In this document: in pieces, positions 1-13,300 of the stretch
How positions within the stretch are numbered: position 1 is the stretch's first letter
Layout of the letters: every line of letters starts with the position of its first letter
From: Desulfomonilaceae bacterium
Lineage (GTDB): Bacteria; Desulfobacterota; Desulfomonilia; Desulfomonilales; Desulfomonilaceae
DNA length: 54,080 bases
Direction: 5' to 3'
Assembly (NCBI GenBank): GCA_041741735.1
Contig: JBGSJS010000059.1
Location: 1-54,080, forward strand
The notes under the pieces: model-generated
What the model was told of the DNA's origin: nothing
Databases searched by the model: none
Seen by the model: the letters and a program-made list of their open reading frames with translations, nothing else
Translations under genes and position numbers: made by a program

Positions 1-874
1 TGCGTGCGGCGGACACGCGTTCGATCTTTTCTTCGAGGTGGGCTTTTTGAACCGTGAGATACTCCTTTTCCGGAATTGTCCCCTTCTCCAGGAGGTTCCG
101 GGCTCGATCGAAATTGTAGCTCGCAAGCTTCTCACGCTCCAACGCAACCAAGTATCGACTGCGTGCTTCCGCTAGCTCCCGGCTCTCTATAACGGCCACC
201 ACTTCTCCGGACGTGACGGAGTCCCCAAGATTCTTGCGTGATTCCACGACAAACCCTGAAACTCTGGGTACGAGATGAGAGACTCGATCGGCGTTGAAAG
301 CGATCTCGCCCGGCAATTCCAGAAAGGAACGTATCGTCTTAGGTTCGGCTAATGCCGTCTGGATGCCCATCTGCCGGGCAAGTTCCTCCGGAAGCGTCAG
401 ACGCCCGTCATATTGGGAATATTCCCACTCAAAGTCCTCTTCTTGCCACCGAGCCGAGGCTTTGACGAAGAATGAGAGGGGCCTATCGATCTCACGGTTC
501 CCGAACAGAAAACCCGGGCCGGGCTTGAGCTCGTAGACTTCCACGTTGTCCCCCAGACGCTCCAACCGGATGGAGACAGCTATTTCCTCCGGATCTATCG
601 GTCGGCCGTTCCGAGAAGCATAGACTCGAAAGTGAGGGCGGCATCCCTTCTCGTACGTCACGATTTCAAGCACAAGGTCACCTTCCCGCAGCAGTTTGCC
701 GCCGTGGGGCCCTTTGTCCTCGCATTCTCCGTGGCCGTCACCGTGCGAGTCGTGTTTGTGCGTGGAATCCCGATCGTGTGACGTACCTGACCTTATCGAA
801 GAAACGCCTCCGTTGAGAGCAACAAAGAGGCCGATCACAAGTACCGCACATAGTCCCATGATTATTTTCTTCAT
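1..874 (-). CDS. Efflux RND periplasmic adaptor (membrane fusion protein, CusB/CzcB-like). Partial: the 3' end runs off the window.
   Basis: Continuous minus-strand frame from the ATG at 872-874 to the window edge. The N-terminus reads MKKIIMGLCAVLVIG (signal/anchor) followed by a His/Asp-rich metal-binding stretch (HDRDSTHKHDSHGDGHGECEDKGPHGG), then a biotinyl-lipoyl-like/beta-barrel region (VTSGEVVAVIESRELAEARSRYLVALEREKLASYNFDRARNLLEKG) typical of HlyD-family adaptors for heavy-metal efflux. Not in the ORF track because it is truncated by the window edge. Confidence 0.75.
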   Translation of the reverse strand, partial: MKKIIMGLCAVLVIGLFVALNGGVSSIRSGTSHDRDSTHKHDSHGDGHGECEDKGPHGGKLLREGDLVLEIVTYEKGCRPHFRVYASRNGRPIDPEEIAVSIRLERLGDNVEVYELKPGPGFLFGNREIDRPLSFFVKASARWQEEDFEWEYSQYDGRLTLPEELARQMGIQTALAEPKTIRSFLELPGEIAFNADRVSHLVPRVSGFVVESRKNLGDSVTSGEVVAVIESRELAEARSRYLVALEREKLASYNFDRARNLLEKGTIPEKEYLTVQKAHLEEKIERVSAAR

Positions 875-1096
875 ATTCTTCACTCATTGTAGATTGCGAG
901 ACCATCGGCCCAGGAATCCTCCATTACCTCTCACCGGCGGGGTGCGGTTCAGATTCCGGCAGTCCAACAGGCTGCAGTGACGGGATAGGCTTTCAACGGA
1001 GCCGGCACAGAGGCCGTTTCGAGCCATGGGTTATCCGGTCTTGTCCCGGAGCATCCCCGGGACAAGACGCCCTACCTCCTCATTTATTTCAGAGGG

Positions 1097-1294
1097 TTAC
1101 TTGTTCTTGTTTGCGCTCTTGGCTGCCTCTTCCTGTTGAACTTTCTGCTTTTCAGCCTCGGCCTTCTGCTGTTTCTTCACCTGCTGGACCATGACCCTGG
1201 ACATGTTTTCCGCGTTCATGTCTTTGGCGCAGACGGAAGTGGCACCGGCAGCCACGAATACTGAGAGGGCGATCGCTACGAATATCTTTTGCAT
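1097..1294 (-). CDS. Small secreted Lys/Gln-rich protein (hypothetical).
   Basis: 65-aa ORF with a clear signal peptide (MQKIFVAIALSVFVAAGATSVCA) followed by a charged KQQKAEAEKQK tail. No recognisable domain. Confidence 0.35.
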   Translation of the reverse strand: MQKIFVAIALSVFVAAGATSVCAKDMNAENMSRVMVQQVKKQQKAEAEKQKVQQEEAAKSANKNK

Positions 1295-2468
1295 TTACTT
1301 TCTCTCATTTCCAAGAAGTGGTATAAGCGCACGCCCGAGACGCTTCGGAAGACAGATGAAAGTAAACCTCCGACTTAAACATCCGGCTCTATAGGATGTG
1401 AGCGGAGATCTGAAGCCCCAGCGCGTTTGAACGGCCCTCACCGAGGTACATCAAGACCGTTGCTCGGAAACGTTCATCGCGCGACGCAACACTGCTTCAT
1501 CAATGTCGTCCTTGGGCCATGCGACATGAATGTCCAAATGCGCCCATACAATCGCTCCGGCTTACGAAAATGCCGAGCCGATCATCGTATGGACTGCGGC
1601 TGTTTTGTTAGGATTTGAGGACAGAAAATGAAAGGATCAAATGATGAGAACAGTCGTCGGGTCCGGGCCACCCGGAACCTTCGATCGGTCCTTACAAGCA
1701 AGGTTAGAGACTATAGGGGCCTTACCAAAGAAGAAGGAGCAAGCGGGCACTGAAGCAACGGCAAAGGCGTGAGGCAACCTTTCGTCACCACCAGCCAGTC
1801 TCTCACTATATCGCGTGACTCCATCCGTGTCGATGGATACATCCGTACAGTCGGGTCCGGCTGCATCGCCACGCTCACCAGGACAATGCGATGACGATTC
1901 GGTACACGGCGACGCCGCCTTGATTCGGATATTACCGTCCCGCTGGAAACACCAGACTGCCGGAAAGGTCCACAGCATGGCCAACAGCGAAGTCACTGTT
2001 ATCAAAGACACGTAGGATGCGCGTCGAATTGCCATGCCGTCTGGTTGCTCCGTCCAAGGAGAGATCGATTTTTCCCAGGCGAAGGGTTCGCCCCAAACAC
2101 CTACACTTTAATGAATATCGCGGAACGGCTTCTGTGTCAAGTGTCTTGTCAGTGGCGGCACAAGATGGGTGTCCGAAGAAGTTGCCTGTTAGGAAAAAAG
2201 TGTGGAAAAATAGGGTGATCTTATCTCAAAATCGTTATGCGTCGGGACTTGGCGCGGAGTGGGAGAATGCGGCTTCCTTGGCCTTACAATGCGGTATGGC
2301 GGTCATTTCTCAGTCCGCAGTCCACGAGTACGCTGAGGGACGGGAGGAGTTGGGGAATGCATGTTGTGGTCCACTCTCGGGATCCTGGGATGAAATTGAA
2401 GCCGTCCGCCTCACGCTGGTGATCAAGACACTTCGGAAATTCCCCGTCTCCTCAGACCGAGCGTAAAC

Positions 2469-2658
2469 TACAGTGCAGCTCTTTGAAATTCGCTGCATTC
2501 TTTGAGTTGAAGGCCAATGAGCCTTCGGTGACATCATCCCCGGAGATCGGCGCCTGTTTGAGGCTTGTGGCAGATCCGATAGGGGAGCGCAGAAGGCTAT
2601 CCATAGGATTCCTTCTGACCTCAGGTCTCGTTGCTTCCCTCAATCTCCAAAGCGCTCC
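2469..2658 (-). ncRNA. Copy A of a dispersed conserved ~200-230 nt element (putative structured leader RNA or miniature repeat); see findings.
   Basis: Reverse complement of the element seen at 14597-14825, 19768-19980 and 30981-31190. Shared blocks: GAGCGCTTTG..TTGnGG at the 5' end; CCnCTATCGGnnTGCCAnAAGyCTCAnnCAGGCG; a variable GC hairpin; GATCTCCGGnGAnnATG; GAAGGCTCATTGGCCTTCAACTCnAAnAATGCnGCGAATTTnAAnGAGCnGCAC at the 3' end. Confidence 0.4.
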
Positions 2659-2683
2659 ACAGCAATTGCCGCGATATTCGCGA

Positions 2684-3748
2684 TCACTTTACCTTAGCAG
2701 ATAGAAATTCGAATGGCTGAGCCGATTCGAACTTGCTTGCAGCGCTGCCGGAATAGGTCTTGCGACCGGTGAGGGTGAGCTTCTTGACCGGGGCACCCTC
2801 CTTCAAATCCAGTTCCGCCAACGGCACCCAAAAGGTGGTGGGGCTCGTAGCGGAATCATAGTAATAAACCTTGGTCTTGTGATCGGAGACCGTGCGCCAC
2901 AGGGTCGACGCAATGTTCGGTTGCCCCGGGGTGGTGATGCCCAACGGCACGGAGACGCTCCGAATTACGCCGAATGTGCCGGCCACGGCCTGGAACATGT
3001 CGGCTGTCTTGGGGATGGCGTTGATGAAAAACGACGCTCGCGCAAAGCGATCCGATGCCCGGATGGTGCCCGGAAGGAAGATCATCCCGCCGATTTGCTC
3101 CCAGTACTTGTTCAGGGCCAGTTGCTGGTCAAACACGGGTGAGTTGGTCATGACCTGATACTTCTTGCCATGATGAACGACCAGCTTGCCGGCGATGTAT
3201 TCGAAAATTGCCGAGTCGCCGGTGGGGTCCGAAATCGCCAGATGTCCCGCAGCCGGCTTACCATCAGGCAGCACCGGTGCAATCACCACGAACGGATCGT
3301 CGCTCAAGGCCTTTACCGCTTCGTCTACGGACGCGTAGCTGTCGAGGACATATTGCGCCCAAGCCCCAATGGAGATGGTCGGTCGCTTGCCGTCCGGCTT
3401 GCCGTACTCGGATTCGGTGAGATAGAGAACGTTCGCAACCAGGCCCTTCTCATTCATTCCGTCGACAGTGGCGACGTTATAAAAAGAGCAGACCACGCTG
3501 CCGTATTTCGACACCCATTTGAGCGAGGTGGACCCGGCCGCGCCGTTGCGCTTCATGCCGCGGGGAAACGCCCAGAGGTCGGTGCCCGTATCTTCCGCCC
3601 AGTCCATCGACCGCGCGGTGATGATCGTGCCGTTAGGCCCCAGGTACACGGCTCGGGTGCACGCGTCGGCCTGCTGCATGGGAGCAAGGGCCAGGATCAG
3701 TGCGATAAGTGCCGCACACATTGCCTCCATGAAAGTTTCACGGGTCAT
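2684..3748 (-). CDS. Choloylglycine hydrolase / penicillin V acylase family (Ntn hydrolase, linear amide C-N hydrolase), secreted.
   Basis: 354 aa. The signal peptide is followed directly by the nucleophile Cys (...APMQQADA|CTRAVYLGPNG), the hallmark of the Ntn-hydrolase CGH family (PF02275-like). AAGGAAG SD 7 nt upstream of the ATG at 3748. Confidence 0.85.
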   Translation of the reverse strand: MTRETFMEAMCAALIALILALAPMQQADACTRAVYLGPNGTIITARSMDWAEDTGTDLWAFPRGMKRNGAAGSTSLKWVSKYGSVVCSFYNVATVDGMNEKGLVANVLYLTESEYGKPDGKRPTISIGAWAQYVLDSYASVDEAVKALSDDPFVVIAPVLPDGKPAAGHLAISDPTGDSAIFEYIAGKLVVHHGKKYQVMTNSPVFDQQLALNKYWEQIGGMIFLPGTIRASDRFARASFFINAIPKTADMFQAVAGTFGVIRSVSVPLGITTPGQPNIASTLWRTVSDHKTKVYYYDSATSPTTFWVPLAELDLKEGAPVKKLTLTGRKTYSGSAASKFESAQPFEFLSAKVK

Positions 3749-4101
3749 GGGTCACTTCCTTTTTCGTTTTTTTGGTTGGGATGATGAATTGAGTAATGCC
3801 GGACTAAGTACCAGTTCGTTCCATATATAGGCCGTAATTATGAGGGGGACTTGCCATTGGGCAGATATTCGAGGCCGATGATTCGCCGAAAGATATTTCC
3901 CCTGACATCAAAGAAGCCCGTCCCCGGTCCCCCGCAAGACCCGACGTATGCAAAACAGTTATCACGGTACTGAAAGAACCAATAGTTTCTTTCTATTCAG
4001 ATTACTTCATCGAACGGACTCGGTCAAGTGCGATTCCTTTGGTGAATCCTCGGATGTGACGCTTGACTACCGATGGATCGCCATCCACCTTGGAAAATGA
4101 T

Positions 4102-4656
4102 CTATGCGGGCTCCGACACTAACTTCTTGGCTGTTTCTCTCATCTCGTCAACTTCTTTCACCGCTTCCAGGGCCGATTCGAGCGTGACATGCGGCTTCAG
4201 GGAATGAATCCGGTCGGCTCGGGCCTTGTTCCCACCATTCTTGGCTTCGATAGTAACATAAAGAGCCGTTGCCAACCGTTCCAGGTCGGCAACTCCCTTG
4301 TTTCCCAGCGCCTCGGCCACAAACACAAGATGTTCCCGATAGTCATTCAAGGTCTTGGTAAAGCGAGTCTTCAGGTCCTCTGCATTCTGGGTCGGTGCCA
4401 GACTGGGCCCGTAAGGAATTGGCCTTGGCTCAAGCCGGAAAAGCTCATAGGCCCTTAATTCGGTGATCTCGTCGCGGAGGTCGAACGAGAAAGGGCCATG
4501 CTTGTACAGAATGTATCCGTATTCCAGGGGCACCTTGAGCAGTTCTTGCAGGAAGTAGACGGCCTTTTGTAGGTGGGTCTCCCCGCACCAACTGCCGTGC
4601 TTTCTCATCCGATCGGCCAGTTCAGCCAATATTACAGCCCTTTGGAGTCTCTTCAT
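4102..4656 (-). CDS. Panacea/SocA-like (DUF4065) domain protein, putative antitoxin or immunity partner of the upstream HD hydrolase.
   Basis: 184 aa starting MKRLQRAV. The start ATG overlaps the upstream stop as ATGA (ATG 4654-4656, TGA 4653-4655). The core HLQKAVYFLQELLKVPLEYGYILYKHGPFSF matches the DUF4065 signature (K-L-Q-K-L-L-Y-x-a-q ... kyGPV). The ORF track's extended 215-aa version overlaps the HD gene and was trimmed. Confidence 0.6.
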   Translation of the reverse strand: MKRLQRAVILAELADRMRKHGSWCGETHLQKAVYFLQELLKVPLEYGYILYKHGPFSFDLRDEITELRAYELFRLEPRPIPYGPSLAPTQNAEDLKTRFTKTLNDYREHLVFVAEALGNKGVADLERLATALYVTIEAKNGGNKARADRIHSLKPHVTLESALEAVKEVDEMRETAKKLVSEPA

Positions 4657-6005
4657 GGGGTTTCCGCCTCCAGCCGGATAATCGAGGCTTTGTGCTCTGC
4701 AAGCCAACTTTTCGCTTTGGTGAGCAATTTTCTGTCCACGAATACGCAATCCACTGATGCTAGGGGCATGGATCCCAGCACTTGAGAGATGGAGGTAGAG
4801 GACACGGATCTGTTCTCTTGTGTGAGGACCGGGAATTCGTAGACCTGTCCCTTTTCTGCGTACTGATCATAGCGGACTTTCTCAGACCCGAAATCATGTT
4901 TGACGCACGAAAATACGGCAAGTCCAGCTTCAGGGTTAATCTTCAGGTCATCCCCTGATGGAACGTACAACCGCTTGAAATGCTCGTGCGAGACGATGCG
5001 TCGGGAATGCTCGTGGCCTTTTTGCGACGAATCGCCGCTGCTCTTCGACAAAGCCGCACCGATCTCATTGTCAGTCCAGGCCAAGTGACCTTCGAGGTCG
5101 GTCGGAAACACTCCATTCGACAACCATTCTCGCAGAAAATCCCTTAAATGGATGTCGTAGATGCGCCGCACCGGATGAAGATAGACCTGGGAATACATGA
5201 AGTAACGTGCCAGCAGCAAGGCCTCCGCCGATTGAAGTCCGCCTTCTTCCACACCCAATGCAGGCTCCCTGGAGCCGCTGCGATCCGGTTCGGACGTGTC
5301 CGAAGGGGGGGCAGTAAGTATTCGAAGCGTGTCGATCAGCCTATAATGGTCGAACCTGCCGTAGGCCACACCGGTGTGATGGGAATCCCGAAGGAGATAA
5401 TCCATACGGTCCACTCCGAAAGCATCACCCACGATAATCTCGGCAAGAACGGACTCTCCAGGAGTGAAAATGAGGTCAGCCGCCTTCTCAGGCCCCACAG
5501 CCAGCTTCACCAAGTCCCCATTGCGCAAAGGTGGGGTAGCCTCGTCCCAAATGTCCTGCAACTCCCTACCACAAATTAACTCGCGAGTCAGCTTTTCATG
5601 ATCCCAGCCTTCCGGAAGAAGTTCCTTTTCGGCAGCATGAGAAAACGGAAGATGACCAAGGTCGTGACATAGCGCCGCCATGCGGAGCACTCGACGCCAA
5701 TATCTCCTCTTGTCCTCGTCGGCAATCTCCGGCAAGAGGTTCCGAATTTCATCAGTAAGTGCATCTGGCCGAGTGACGACATCAAATACCCTGGAGGCCA
5801 ACTCCATTACACCGAGCGAATGCTCGAAGCGTCTATGGGTGGCACCCGGGTAGAGCAGATAAGTCATCCCAAGCTGATGGATGTGACGGAGGCGCTGAAA
5901 AGGGCGAGAATCCAGTACCTTACGCTCCGTAGAATCAAGTCGAACGAACACGTGGATCGGGTCCCGGATTTCATGCAAGTTCTTCTTCAGCACGTTGCCC
6001 CTCAT
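4653..6005 (-). CDS. HD-domain phosphohydrolase of the dGTPase/SAMHD1-like (dNTP triphosphohydrolase) family, with a ~250-aa C-terminal region of unknown function.
   Basis: 450 aa. N-terminus IRDPIHVFVRLDSTERKVLDSRPFQRLRHIHQLG...HRRFEHSLGVMELA...AALCHDLGHLPFSH gives the H..HD..D metal-binding motifs of dGTPase-like HD hydrolases. ATG confirmed at 6003-6005. Confidence 0.8.
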   Translation of the reverse strand: MRGNVLKKNLHEIRDPIHVFVRLDSTERKVLDSRPFQRLRHIHQLGMTYLLYPGATHRRFEHSLGVMELASRVFDVVTRPDALTDEIRNLLPEIADEDKRRYWRRVLRMAALCHDLGHLPFSHAAEKELLPEGWDHEKLTRELICGRELQDIWDEATPPLRNGDLVKLAVGPEKAADLIFTPGESVLAEIIVGDAFGVDRMDYLLRDSHHTGVAYGRFDHYRLIDTLRILTAPPSDTSEPDRSGSREPALGVEEGGLQSAEALLLARYFMYSQVYLHPVRRIYDIHLRDFLREWLSNGVFPTDLEGHLAWTDNEIGAALSKSSGDSSQKGHEHSRRIVSHEHFKRLYVPSGDDLKINPEAGLAVFSCVKHDFGSEKVRYDQYAEKGQVYEFPVLTQENRSVSSTSISQVLGSMPLASVDCVFVDRKLLTKAKSWLAEHKASIIRLEAETP

Positions 6006-6168
6006 ATTCTTGGGACGATTAAAGCCAAGCCTTTACAGGTTGCTTGCGGAGAGGGAATTTGCCGGCAAGACCTTGAGGATTCCAGCACATCCCAAAGAGA
6101 GCACGGTGTCGGCTGGAAGTACCAAGAACGCCCAACCATTTCGATCATCCTGGTTGGGCTATGCCCGT

Positions 6169-6681
6169 TTAAGATATCTTAAGATTCCCTCTGTACACGT
6201 CCAGATCTTTCTCGGAAAAGAGCACGAACACCACCCGGCGGATATTCGGGAACCGCTCCAATTGCGCCAACGTGGTCGAAATGGCTATTTTCGAGGCGTC
6301 AGTTATGGGATATCCGTACACGCCGGTGCTGATGGAAGGAAATGCAATGGAGGTAATTCCATTCTCATTCGCGACTTCGAAACATCGCCGGTAGCAACTC
6401 TCAAGGAGTTTCGGCTCCCCTGAAGTCCCCCCTCGATAGACCGGCCCGACCGTGTGGATGACATGCCGGGCGGTGAGATTGTATCCCTTGGTAATCTTCG
6501 CGTCCCCCGTGTCGCATCCGCAGAGAGCTCGGCACTCGACGAGGAGCTCGGGGCCGGCCGCGCGGTGAATGGCTCCGTCCACCCCGCCTCCGCCGAGGAG
6601 GCTCTTGTTGGCAGCGTTAACAATGGCGTCAACGTCCATGGCTGTGATGTCGCCCCGTACGAGCTCGATTCCGTCCTTCAT
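6169..6681 (-). CDS. Macro domain protein (O-acetyl-ADP-ribose deacetylase, YmdB/MacroD-like).
   Basis: [40 protein letters not shown]...VIHTVGPVY is the classic macro-domain signature. Start set at MKDGIEL (ATG 6679-6681) because GGAGG sits 8 nt upstream. The longer track ORF (to 6885) adds a Pro/Arg-rich, non-domain extension. Confidence 0.8.
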
Positions 6682-6893
6682 CGTGGTCCCCTCCTCAAGA
6701 ACGTCAGACAGTTTCCTATGCGTGATCACGGCACGAGGCCGACAAAAGTCGTCCCCCGGACACCGGTCCACCTCCATCGATTGCCAAGGGAGAGGATCTT
6801 CGGGGTCGGTAACCGCTACGAGCGTGTAACGAATTGGACGGAAGACCCCCGTGCCGGGCGGCAAAGGAGCTCTTCCGTGTGTCACGGTTCCAT

Positions 6894-7574
6894 TTACTCG
6901 AAGATCTCCCGCTCATTCTCTCTATGGTCCACTATGTAGAGCAGCTTGGCTTTTTCCGCGACCTCTTTTTTCAATTGAGGCAGCACATCGCGATCGATGT
7001 CGAACACTCTAATATAGAGGTGACGATGGCCCTCCGGCGCTTTTTCGTAGGATGTCAGGATGCTCACCAGACGGGCATTGAAACTCCGGATCACGTCGGT
7101 AACGTCCTTGATGGACCCCGGTCGATCCTCAATGAGGAATCCGAACTGGACACCTCTCTTGGTGAGGCCGCTCAAGGAGATCATTGCCTTGAAAAGGTCG
7201 CTTTTCGTGATGACTCCAACGATGACCCCCTGGGCGTCGGCCACGGGTGCACCCGAAATCTTGTTATTGAGAAGAACCTCCGCGGTCTCTTCAATGGTGA
7301 AGTCAGGCGGAACCGTTATCGGATAACGACTCATGATCGCGCCGACTTCAAGGCGAGACAGGTGATAGAGAATCTGTTGGATGTCCAGCATCGTGGCGTC
7401 CGAGGGAGAGGCCCGTTTGAGATCGCGATCCGTAACGACGCCTACAAGCTTGCCATCCTCGAGGACGGGCATGATGCTGACATGGCGCTCCATCGAGAGG
7501 TTGATGGCGTGCTGCATGGTGTCGCTGACGTCCAACGTGACGACGTCCGTGCTCATCCAATCTTTGACCAGCAT
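6894..7574 (-). CDS. CBS-pair domain protein with C-terminal ACT-like region (AcuB-like).
   Basis: 226 aa. [19 protein letters not shown]... contains two CBS motifs ([22 protein letters not shown]). AGGAGG SD upstream of the ATG at 7574. Confidence 0.8.
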
Positions 7575-8321
7575 GGGAATCCTCCTTGGTGGGCGACAGT
7601 CTCGATCGGTATTGAGGCTCCTCCGTCCGACGATCGAGCCCCCCGTCGCTTCCGAGACGGTTTACGCATATCGGAGCACACAGAAACATGTGTGCGAATA
7701 AGGAGAATCATACAGTCAACCGGCAAGTCGGTAAACACGAATTTTCACGCGTGGACCGAGTCATTACAACCACTGACGTTGCGGGCCCACTTTCGGGAGG
7801 GAGACCGATTCCGGAAACAACCGGAAGGGGTTTCCAGTTCATTGCCGTCATGTCCTACGATCGACCCAATACCGTGACAGGGGGAGGGAATCTGCAGTGC
7901 CCAGCGAGCCGCACTGCTGCCGGGACGGGCCCGGCCCTTGCTACAGCGGTTTCCGCGTCTTACTATAAAACATGACAGAGGTGTCCCTCCACGGCACTTA
8001 TGGATGACCAACGAAACCGAAAGGCTTGCATTGCGGGCTAAGGTTGTCAAAAAGCTGGGAGGTGCGGCAATGGGCACTCAATGGGACGATCGATTCGACG
8101 TTGTGTGCGGCGCAGTCATCGTAGGTCGGGAAAGCGAGCCGTTCGAAGATTCGGGACTCTGGGACTTGGTTCATGGGCCTAAAGGGCCCCCGAGCCACTG
8201 TTCTTCGTCGCCGATTGGCTCCGCAGGCACCGAAGATCCTCTCTGCGCAAAGCTCGAGAATCACACACAGCGCGCATGGCACGTAGTTCGAGAATACCCC
8301 GAGCGTACGCGTTAAAGCTCG

Positions 8322-11619: not shown

Positions 11620-12380
11620 TCCGCAGAGTGATGCGTCCGCAGAGTGATGCGTCCGCAGATGAAGAGGCAAAGCGCCTGGAGTTTCCAGAGGACTTTGCAG
11701 GGTGCGCCGTTGCCTCCGTACGTTTTCTTGTTCTTGAATCTGCGCAATCTGTGGATACTCTTGATCTTCAGACAGACTTCATCCGCAGATGACACAGATG
11801 GAAAGACAAAGGCTTAAGGTCTCCGGAGGCTATTACCGGAAGATGTGTATGAATAGGCCTGGTGTGGACACCTGTGTCGGCTCTTTTGCCTTCCTAATCT
11901 GCGTGTATCTGCGCAATCTGTGGATAGTCTTCTCTGGATTTTCCGAAAAGATCTCATCCGCAGATGACGCAGATGTCCACAGATGAAAAGACATAGGCAA
12001 CAGAAGTTTGCTGAGGACATTGCGGTCCTGTGCACTGTTGATGGCTTGGCGTGGGATAAGGCCGCCTCCGTAAGATCTTCTCTTCTCAAATCTGCGTGAA
12101 TCTGTGCAATCTGTGGATTCTCTTTTTCGGATTCTTGGGAAAGATTTGATCCGCAGATGACGGAGATGTTCACAGATGAAAAGACGAAGACAGTTGAAGT
12201 CTCCGGAGGCTTTTACCGGAAATGCGTATAAGCAGGCTTGGTTTGGACGTCTATGTAGGTCTTGTTGTTTTTGAGTCTGCGTGAATCCGGGCCATCTGTG
12301 GATTCATTTCTTCAGTGAAACAATCTCACCCACGGATGTCCCCGAGGTTCGTGGATGAGAAAACACAAAACGCTTGAACT
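11620..12380. repeat. Tandem array of ~4 units of a ~190-bp repeat, each with a conserved ~100-bp dyad-symmetric core; extends into the 5' region of the GxxExxY ORF.
   Basis: Core consensus: AATCTGCGTGTATCTGCGCAATCTGTGGATAGTCTTCTCTGGATTCTTCGGAAAGATTTCATCCGCAGATGTCACAGATGTCCGCAGATGGAAAGACA. Units begin near 11741, 11897, 12085 and 12270; the last is degenerate. The cores are separated by diverged ~90-bp linkers. Confidence 0.85.
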
Positions 12381-12732
12381 CTAGTCTAGGGCGGCCAAAA
12401 TTCAGCAGGAGTCCTCGCTTGAGATGTGTTGCCTTAAGGTAGTTCAGGAGCTGCGCTTCCTCGATTCCGGTGATCGCATTGAGTGCCTTCAATTCGACTA
12501 TCACCTCATTGTAGCAGACAAAATCGGCACGGTAGGAGCAGTTGAGCTGCTCGCCCTTGTAATAGACCGGCAACTCCACCTCGCGGGCGAATGGAATGGC
12601 TCGGGCCGACATTTCGATCGCAAGCGCGTGCTGATAAACGGCCTCCAGGAATCCTGCACCGAGCTGTCGATGAACCTCCATGGCCGCACCGATAATTGCG
12701 TGAGTCTGTTCGTCTCTTGCATCTGTACTCAT
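12304..12732 (-). CDS. GxxExxY family protein (PD-(D/E)XK-like), embedded in the repeat array.
   Basis: Start at MSTDARDEQTHAIIGAAMEVHRQLGAGFLEAVYQHALAIEM...VYYKGEQL...RADFVCYNEVIVELKAL...AQLLNYLKATHLKRGLLLNFG, a full match to the ~125-aa GxxExxY family. The upstream 76 codons of the track ORF are repeat-derived, so they are excluded. Confidence 0.7.
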   Translation of the reverse strand: MSTDARDEQTHAIIGAAMEVHRQLGAGFLEAVYQHALAIEMSARAIPFAREVELPVYYKGEQLNCSYRADFVCYNEVIVELKALNAITGIEEAQLLNYLKATHLKRGLLLNFGRPRLEFKRFVFSHPRTSGTSVGEIVSLKK

Positions 12733-12879
12733 CCGGGAAAAACCCAAATTCCTTTCTTGACCGGATGACGCCACCTCGGATAGGAGCGTTCTTATCCGTA
12801 GATTACGCAGATGATCGCCGCTGAGTAAAGAAGAAACCTTGGACATGGAGAGGCGAAGATCTCGTGATCGACCAGCGTC

Positions 12880-13300
12880 CTTTTGAGGCTGTGGGTTAGC
12901 TTCCGGATTCAGAGAGGTTTCATCCGCAGATGACACAGATGTCCGCAGATGAAAAGACAATGCGTTTGAAGCCGGGTCGAGAACAACTACAGTTTACGTG
13001 GACTTTCGCAACACACGTGTAACCACGCATTCGTTCCGGCTTCTTTAATCTGCGTGTATCTGCGTCATCTGTGGATACTCTTCTCTGGATTCTTCGGAAA
13101 GATTTCATCCGCAGATGTCACAGATGTCCGCAGATGGAAAGACAAGAGTGACTGAAGTCTCCGAAGGGCTTCTAGCGTCCGGCCAGGTCGTTGATGAATT
13201 TCCATCGCCTGACCGGAGATTCCGCGAGCTATTCTGCTTTTTGAATCCGCGTTGATTTGTACTGGTTCAGCGTGAATCGGACAAATCCGGTTTGGGTTTA
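12880..13300. repeat. Left copy of a ~350-400 bp direct repeat (two hairpin-core units plus a diverged linker) flanking the 13.3-18.8 kb segment.
   Basis: ~95% identical over ~350 bp to 18885-19265, including the stretch ...gaaagacaatgcgtttgaagccgggtcgagaaca(a/g)ctacagt(t/c)tacgtggactttcgcaacacacgtgtaaccacgcattcgttccggcttctttaatctgcgt.... Confidence 0.85.

Follow-up and report, generated by a model that had tools for sequence, protein, structure and literature searches.

Nucleotide depletion by SAMHD1-type enzymes, which are deoxynucleoside triphosphate (dNTP) triphosphohydrolases (dNTPases), is an antiviral strategy common to animals and bacteria. We know of no dedicated protein partner described for SAMHD1, Enterococcus EF1143, or Aquifex O67745. 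The latter protein (PDB structure 2HEK), EF1143, and SAMHD1 have been grouped as the SAMHD1-like (COG1078) family, which is separate from the Dgt-like enzymes, and the prokaryotic SAMHD1-like genes have been described as auxiliary and horizontally moving (PMC7854603). In the Clover system (CloAB), the partner keeps a defensive dNTPase in check and so limits its toxicity to the cell; this partner, CloB, is a Pol-beta-type nucleotidyltransferase that makes an inhibitory nucleotide (PMC12265719). In the DarTG system, the C-terminal domain of DarG binds and blocks the partner enzyme DarT. Elements of both arrangements come together in a two-gene locus that lies in a 54,080-nucleotide stretch of a Desulfomonilaceae bacterium (GenBank assembly GCA_041741735.1, contig JBGSJS010000059.1, positions 1 to 54,080), which is referred to as the window throughout. 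In this locus, the gene for a SAMHD1-type HD protein is followed by a gene for a small protein that resembles the C-terminal domain of DarG. In our judgment, there is about an even chance that the locus encodes a mobile module of two subunits that depletes nucleotides, probably in defence, with the dNTPase under the control of the small protein. The principal features of the locus are as follows.

4653..6005, minus strand: gene for the HD dNTPase homolog, 450 amino acids when read from the ATG at 6005
4102..4656, minus strand: small partner gene, 184 amino acids, encoding a predicted stand-alone homolog of the DarG C-terminal DarT-binding domain
4653..4656, minus strand: ATGA stop/start overlap, the small-gene ATG (4656-4654) lying over the HD-gene TGA (4655-4653), as read from the sequence
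4667..4671, minus strand: GGAGG element resembling a Shine-Dalgarno sequence, within the final codons of the HD gene, 10 nucleotides 5' of the small-gene ATG
6006..6168, minus strand: intergenic region 5' of the HD gene, presumed promoter region

Both genes are real and have the coordinates, the minus-strand orientation, and the ATGA overlap that had been proposed in an earlier reading of the bare sequence (the original prediction). The NCBI product of the HD gene on this contig has 446 amino acids, and the GTG at 5993, which yields this length, is probably the likelier start, since it is preceded by GAGGGG. GAGG or GGAG strings also occur 5' of the small-gene start in the junctions of many related loci. 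A promoter scan of window positions 3700-7700 returned 0 promoter-like sites and thus no sigma-70-like site 5' of the HD gene.

The larger protein is, as judged by its alignments, a full-length SAMHD1-like (COG1078-type) dNTP triphosphohydrolase homolog, and the corresponding enzymatic activity is predicted by homology. The motifs that had led the original prediction to a SAMHD1/dNTPase-type HD enzyme, HRRFEHSLGV and CHDLGHLPFSH, are present at residues 57-66 and 113-123, and this assignment was borne out by a match to Pfam HD (1.5e-08). Among the solved structures, the best match was Aquifex O67745 (2HEK, 1.9e-52, residues 11-435), followed by Enterococcus EF1143 (2O6I, 9e-28) and many SAMHD1 entries at about 1e-22. 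The C-terminal half had been called uncharacterised; since it matches Pfam HD_assoc_2 (1.7e-12, residues 249-353) and the 2HEK alignment extends over residues 11-435, it corresponds to the known C-lobe of the family. Residues R59, H62, H114, D115, H118, H123, H136, E137, D199, Y203, D207, and H210 are invariant in 55 of 55 HD homologs and align to the metal ligands and catalytic residues of SAMHD1; they include the H136-E137 dyad as well as the residues aligned to SAMHD1 R164, H210, H215, and Y315. Also kept are the residues of the guanine-specific allosteric site, which in SAMHD1 are D137, Q142, and R145 (PMC7854603): position 32 is D or N (D32 in the window protein), and Q37 and R40 are found in 54-55 of the 55 homologs. 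Models of the other clade fit poorly: the NCBIfam antiphage_dGTPase model (NF041026) gave 14.2 bits against a cut-off of 400 bits, so that the protein is not a member, and the Dgt-type model TIGR01353 gave 30 bits against 152 bits. Because these scores are far under the cut-offs, the enzyme is to be regarded as SAMHD1-type and not Dgt-type. The PADLOC dGTPase model covers only about 100 residues around the HD motif (positions 46-122 of 395), and weak matches to Cas3-HD hidden Markov models (HMMs) were also seen.

The small protein did not match any Pfam family, even at E<=10. Its relationship to DarG emerges from profiles and from the predicted fold. The PADLOC DarG model matched residues 7-158 at 1.6e-08 (model positions 165-311 of 329), and the NCBIfam model antitoxin_DarG (NF048014) matched at 3.9e-07 (model positions 171-317 of 338). 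Membership in full-length DarG failed, with 29.6 bits versus a cut-off of 250 bits, and the 184-amino-acid protein contains no macrodomain. A single-sequence phmmer search of PDB with the small protein returned nothing meaningful; only the family profile, which was built from 127 members (alignment A1), reached DarG, namely 7YK3_B, the C-terminal domain of Mycobacterium tuberculosis DarG with DarT (E 0.008). The AlphaFold2 model of the small protein has a predicted local distance difference test score (pLDDT) of 97.3, and a Foldseek search of PDB with this model identified chains D and B of 7YK3 with probability 1.00, a template modelling (TM) score of 0.67, and about 188 aligned columns. These chains were its only significant PDB fold neighbour; the other matches, to winged-helix proteins of the MarR/PadR type in the N-terminal part, were of low probability and non-significant (E > 0.5). 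A fold search of BFVD returned only uncharacterised Sulfolobus-virus proteins and no match with a Panacea name. From sequence and modelled fold together, we classify the small protein as a homolog of the DarT-binding C-terminal domain of DarG that occurs on its own. According to the title of Deep et al. 2023 (pmid 37167974), the report of the 7YK3 structure, this domain reportedly keeps DarT inhibited by single-stranded DNA mimicry. The original proposal that the small protein is tied to an antitoxin domain is thus upheld for a different domain, the DarG C-terminal domain, which blocks its toxin. The family is marked by the recurring strings SWCGETHxQK, YKHGPFSFDLRDE, PYGP, LERLATALYV, and LKPH and by many invariant polar residues. 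A distant member (P0376, L169:814-1356) has a weak match to Pfam DUF3978 (E 0.001, residues 17-155 versus positions 6-132 of 144); relatives of this domain that have gone unrecognised may exist among the uncharacterised DUF families.

The domain named in the original prediction was another one, namely Panacea (SocA_Panacea, DUF4065, PF13274), for which a role as sensor or neutraliser has been proposed (PMC10440598). Of the two Pfam families named at that time, HD (PF01966) was found in the larger protein and PF13274 was not found in the small protein even at E<=10, the very outcome that the prediction had itself named as speaking against it. The gathering score of PF13274 is 25.7 bits. Eight of the 127 family members match it, all below this threshold, with a best match of 19.1 bits (E 0.0025), and the family consensus reaches 15 bits (E 0.05); PF13274 is nevertheless the only Pfam family that recurs in more than two of the 127 members. 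Since the consensus, P0357, and P0385, the three matches with known coordinates, align in one register (profile positions ~22-106 of 113), a remote Panacea relationship is plausible. The small-protein model is helical with a beta-hairpin at residues 49-56, and the Panacea fold is compact and consists of alpha1-alpha7 and beta1-beta2. The 130-amino-acid M. tuberculosis DarG fragment did not match PF13274, so the link to Panacea is not made via DarG. By its sequence, the small protein therefore stands outside Pfam Panacea/DUF4065, to which it has only remote, sub-threshold similarity.

The pairing of the two genes is nearly obligate. The small-protein family comprises 3,742 matches in a 90%-clustered database, forming 1,371 clusters at 50% identity, and a scan of one genome per species found it in at least 510 species. 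The hosts belong to the Thermodesulfobacteriota, Planctomycetota, Acidobacteriota, Bacillota, Alpha- and Gammaproteobacteria, Actinomycetota, Methanosarcinales, Methanomicrobiales, and Methanoperedens. Counts for genome loci refer to the best 80 loci of the species scan. An HD homolog was found directly upstream on the same strand in 77 of 78 of these loci, two being without upstream DNA, and a search from the HD side placed the small gene downstream of the HD gene in 71 of the 73 metagenome loci with enough downstream DNA. The co-occurrence on which the original prediction had made itself dependent is thus clearly seen. Even three family members at 39-41% identity still have an HD gene upstream. 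Stop and start overlap in 70 of 77 loci, by 4 nucleotides in 34, 8 nucleotides in 18, 1 nucleotide in 10, and more in 8; the remaining 7 junctions are gaps of 1-5 nucleotides. The pairwise distances of the HD protein and its partner correlate with a Pearson r of 0.80, a value as high as this being reached in 0 of 2000 permutations, and the two proteins thus co-evolve.

Several loci of this sample have a layout of their own. In L066 (positions 4711-6543; Candidatus Methanoperedens sp.), a 51%-identical small protein is encoded behind a 395-amino-acid P-loop ATPase with weak AAA_22, AAA_16, KAP_NTPase, and nSTAND3 matches, and not behind an HD gene; this may be a partner swap. L120 and L168 are the only 2 of the 73 metagenome loci that have no small gene downstream, and in L168 a methyltransferase-like open reading frame (ORF) follows about 400 nucleotides after the HD gene. 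Natural fusions of the HD protein with its partner were considered as evidence for an interface and rejected; the longer proteins in the databases resemble artefacts of frameshifts or assembly.

An association with defence is seen at the Hma genes. PADLOC put Hma forward as a candidate system of defence (PMC8565338), and HmaA was shown experimentally to defend against phage (PMC11232893). The stretch between hmaA and hmaB has been reported as an insertion hotspot for defence systems; roughly two in three hma operons contain such inserts, e.g., Septu, PARIS, and Ppl (PMC11232893). In a 2025 preprint, Hma is placed among the BREX-related systems as one centred on DUF499, and a term search of its text returned nothing on an HD or YwgA-type insert. 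In our data, 19 of 79 genome loci, from bacteria as well as archaea, have the pair flanked by Hma genes, with the typical order HmaA, HD, partner, HmaB, HmaC and junctions that often overlap or nearly so (examples are L004:1254-12492 and L005, L008, L009, L019, L025, L055 from Desulfacinum infernum DSM 9756, L061, L068, and L075). Upstream in these loci lies a SNF2 helicase of ~1,140 amino acids with a NOV_C domain (PADLOC HmaA, 1.5e-198), and downstream a DUF1156 methylase (HmaB, 3e-124) followed by a DUF499 ATPase (HmaC, 4.6e-115). HmaA was also found upstream in 9 of the 44 metagenome loci with enough upstream DNA, so that ~20-24% of the copies in genome and metagenome loci are Hma-linked. 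No partner recurs among 150 genes directly adjacent to stand-alone copies, but defence genes are common among them, namely BrxL, PglZ, DpdF, type I S subunits, a type III methylase, AriA, PsyrT, and AAA_21/AAA_15 ATPases. The Hma-embedded copies suggest a defence role by guilt by association.

The surroundings of the pair also bear on its mobility. Within Methanoculleus, Methanothrix, Methanoperedens, and Isosphaeraceae, the flanking genes vary from species to species. The HD proteins of archaea share 52-59% identity with that of the window and lie interleaved with bacterial ones. A Symbiobacterium protein is closer than those of several Deltaproteobacteria, and so is an alphaproteobacterial one (64%). 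Because the flanks vary within genera and the relationships are incongruent with taxonomy, the cassette moves horizontally. None of the genes that flank the pair in the window, such as the Macro-domain and choloylglycine-hydrolase-family genes, recurs beside it in the 80 genome loci, in agreement with the original view that these flanks are not a conserved operon. The two flanking genes are located as follows.

2684-3748: choloylglycine-hydrolase-family gene, flank of the pair
6169-6885, minus strand: Macro-domain gene, upstream flank, listed ORF of 238 amino acids

The Macro protein is an O-acetyl-ADP-ribose deacetylase equivalog of the MacroD type (NCBIfam, 231 bits versus a 200-bit cut-off). 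The NCBIfam model starts at residue 73, which makes an ATG near 6684 the likely start and gives ~171 amino acids, so that the 238-amino-acid ORF is probably over-extended. The idea of a split DarG, made up of the upstream Macro gene and the small protein, was rejected, the Macro protein being a deacetylase equivalog and absent from all 80 related loci. In the window, no Hma genes (HmaA with SNF2 and NOV_C, HmaB with the DUF1156 methylase, HmaC with the DUF499 ATPase) were found beside the pair, and no tRNA, Rfam match, compositional anomaly, or notable repeat that could mark a mobile element was found around the locus. The only nuclease-type gene seen near the pair encodes a protein of the PD-(D/E)XK nuclease superfamily (PDDEXK_3, 4.3e-42; positions 12304-12960, minus strand), at a distance of ~6 kilobases (kb). 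Window positions 1-2683, about 2.6 kb, contain short ORFs only, the longest having 132 and 149 amino acids; no tRNA, Rfam family, or notable repeat was found in this segment, and the 132-amino-acid ORF, the sole one scanned, had no Pfam match.

These data can be combined into the following model. The window locus would be a stand-alone copy of a mobile two-gene cassette of bacteria and archaea. The enzyme encoded by the first gene would, by homology, hydrolyse dNTPs to deoxynucleosides and triphosphate and answer to a guanine-nucleotide allosteric site, and the second gene would be translated by coupling to the first. The HD protein and the small protein would assemble in a fixed stoichiometry, and within this complex the small protein would regulate the dNTPase, most likely by restraining it or by serving as a sensor. 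Upon a cue such as phage infection, dNTP depletion would be released and the replication of the invader DNA would stall. The homologies, the conservation of catalytic residues, adjacency, and coupling, the co-evolution, the spread across taxonomy, and the frequent location in Hma operons are observed, and complex formation, the direction of regulation, the dNTPase activity, and the defence role are what we infer. The allosteric sites of SAMHD1 bind oligonucleotides, and the residues concerned are conserved in prokaryotic homologs (PMC7854603); by analogy, it may be speculated that a partner mimicking single-stranded DNA occupies such an oligonucleotide-binding site. A more far-reaching version, which we put forward tentatively and with some doubt, makes the stand-alone DarG-C-terminal-domain-like protein a specialised inhibitor or sensor of a SAMHD1-type dNTPase. 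The two would form a widespread nucleotide-depletion immune module of bacteria and archaea that acts by itself or within Hma/BREX-related systems as an integral second effector, orphan viral copies of the partner being possible counter-defence.

A number of observations weigh against a regulated defence module. The window pair lies outside any defence island, amid metabolic and stress genes, namely those for the MacroD-type deacetylase and for CBS-ACT, Usp, PhoU-like, UPF0047, alcohol-dehydrogenase, and choloylglycine-hydrolase-family proteins. Among 72,556 plasmid records, there was a single distant small-protein match, which has no HD neighbour; among 50,697 phage records, no member of the small-protein family was found, and the family is rare in IMG/VR, with 6 loci. 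Conservation is high for a component of an arms race, the mean identity across the domains of life being 60% for the HD protein and 50% for its partner. The effector-first order and the translational coupling are more in keeping with lasting members of one complex than with an unstable antitoxin; the high conservation and the rarity on plasmids and phages likewise favour a stable regulatory subunit. The small protein is not markedly acidic (family median isoelectric point of 6.4), so that mimicry of DNA by the whole protein is not evident. SAMHD1-like enzymes also have housekeeping roles in dNTP homeostasis.

The copies on plasmids and viruses deserve a description of their own. The plasmid match (L081:2123-5543) is on pMETHO01 of Methanomethylovorans hollandica (NC_019972.1), a 285-kb archaeal plasmid, where a 25.7%-identical homolog is encoded behind a gene for a DNA polymerase elongation subunit (PolB). 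In two of the six IMG/VR contigs, the small gene is an orphan (L083:4464-4988 and L084:8001-8558), with no HD gene or remnant upstream; the upstream ~1.7 kb of L084 (6334-8001) contain no ORF of more than about 70 amino acids. Orphan DarG-like antitoxins have been reported in phages, and by analogy the orphan viral partner genes could be anti-defence genes.

The main rival explanation, which we consider unlikely, is that of a housekeeping module for nucleotide pools or DNA maintenance, in which the HD enzyme trims dNTP pools or sanitises nucleotides in non-replicative states and the small protein serves constitutively as a subunit for regulation or targeting, with no dedicated immunity role. 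It is kept alive by the gene order, the high conservation, and the rarity on plasmids and phages, to which the metabolic and stress-related context in the window, the strong purifying selection on both proteins, and a translational coupling typical for complex subunits can be added; furthermore, SAMHD1-like dNTPases such as EF1143 have been described as regulators of bacterial dNTP pools (PMC3190883). However, a housekeeping function fits less well with a patchy distribution that does not follow taxonomy and with flanks that vary within genera, or with the auxiliary and horizontally moving nature ascribed to prokaryotic SAMHD1-like genes (PMC7854603). It also leaves aside that a fifth to a quarter of the copies (20-24%) are inside Hma defence operons of bacteria and archaea and that the other neighbours are frequently defence genes.

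The original prediction had offered a toxin-antitoxin or anti-phage module, and its two halves fared differently. The anti-phage half is the stronger one, given the association of the Hma copies with defence, whereas the classical mobile toxin-antitoxin half is weakened because the family is nearly missing from plasmids and phages and because the effector gene comes first and is coupled to its partner. We regard it as improbable that the pair is a type II addiction module with the HD protein as growth-arresting toxin and the small protein as labile Panacea/DarG-like antitoxin. The homology of the partner to the toxin-neutralising DarG domain, its weak but register-consistent Panacea similarity, the compact, horizontally moving two-gene operon, and the occasional occurrence of the small gene with another partner or none (the ATPase in L066, PolB in L081, the orphans L083 and L084) are all in line with such a module. 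However, the supposed toxin is a 450-amino-acid enzyme with conserved non-toxin homologs that, from its residues, would be allosterically regulated; a partner encoded downstream and translationally coupled implies that there is no antitoxin excess; and the family is very rare on those elements on which addiction modules thrive. Moreover, Panacea membership failed, and the main texts of the Panacea and NetFlax reports mention no HD-domain or phosphohydrolase toxin. Very improbable, finally, is a function on nucleic acids or another nucleotide, with the HD protein as nuclease or hydrolase of a signalling nucleotide and the small protein as a winged-helix-like, nucleic-acid-binding targeting factor or transcription regulator. 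The weak Cas3-HD matches, the oligonucleotide-binding allosteric sites of SAMHD1 with residues kept in prokaryotic homologs (PMC7854603), the low-probability MarR/PadR-type matches of the N-terminal part of the small protein, and the placement of the pair beside a helicase-nuclease and a methylase in Hma operons would agree with this function; but the full dNTPase catalytic set is invariant, including the H136-E137 dyad, the winged-helix matches are non-significant, and the match to the DarG C-terminal domain spans the whole protein.

The original prediction knew of no description of this pairing. It is widespread and visible in databases as hypothetical or "YwgA" proteins, many family members bearing the IMG name "uncharacterized protein YwgA". 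In Bacillus subtilis, after whose YwgA the small protein is named, ywgA adjoins the HD gene ywfO on the core chromosome; this would be the counterpart of the pair and would suit a housekeeping role. A description of the pair was not found in the literature on YwgA/YwfO, on Panacea with HD or dGTPase proteins, on SAMHD1-like defence, and on 2HEK/COG1078, and PADLOC v2 has no dedicated model, the weak matches to DarG and dGTPase aside. With one enzyme and one small protein, the cassette is a simple, widespread, and testable case for the restraint of dangerous dNTPases. The proposed module, if true, would provide the first case of a prokaryotic SAMHD1 homolog under the control of a protein and tie SAMHD1-type immunity to the evolution of antitoxin domains. 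If the partner regulates the enzyme directly, the use of the DarG C-terminal domain would be extended beyond DarTG, and two recurrent unannotated genes of Hma/BREX-related operons would be explained. Should the module instead be of the housekeeping type, a role would be assigned to the long-uncharacterised YwgA-type proteins.

A comparison with described systems shows partial overlap with each of them. As judged by the alignments, the HD protein shares with SAMHD1, EF1143, and O67745 the full-length fold, the catalytic residues, the C-lobe, and the guanine-site residues, but the window HD gene has a nearly obligate, coupled partner gene. Like the Dgt-type anti-phage dGTPases, which serve nucleotide-depletion defence, it would encode an HD-superfamily dNTPase, but the latter enzymes form a separate clade (Dgt-like, COG0232). 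Hma and BREX-related type 1 systems have been defined in the literature without this pair. Like type II toxin-antitoxin systems, the pair is a compact, horizontally mobile bicistronic operon with overlapping genes, but it is not enriched on plasmids or phages. The family may resemble the Panacea proteins of the PanAT systems, which are small and alpha-helical with a beta-hairpin, as is the model of the small protein, and several members align weakly over ~85 of the 113 PF13274 positions; it differs in that the window protein has no PF13274 match at all, that all family matches are below the Pfam threshold, and that the small gene is almost always tied to one partner and not to many. To the C-terminal domain of DarG, the small protein is homologous over its whole length by HMM, profile, and fold, but it lacks the fused macrodomain, and its partner is an HD dNTPase instead of the ADP-ribosyltransferase DarT. 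The clearest precedent is Clover, which is also a two-gene module of a dNTPase and a partner. The small partner described here has no nucleotidyltransferase signature or other Pfam domain; since it resembles a protein-binding antitoxin domain, direct protein-protein control is implied, unlike in Clover, and if the partner does regulate the enzyme directly, this would place a new logic of dNTPase control beside the nucleotide signals of Clover.

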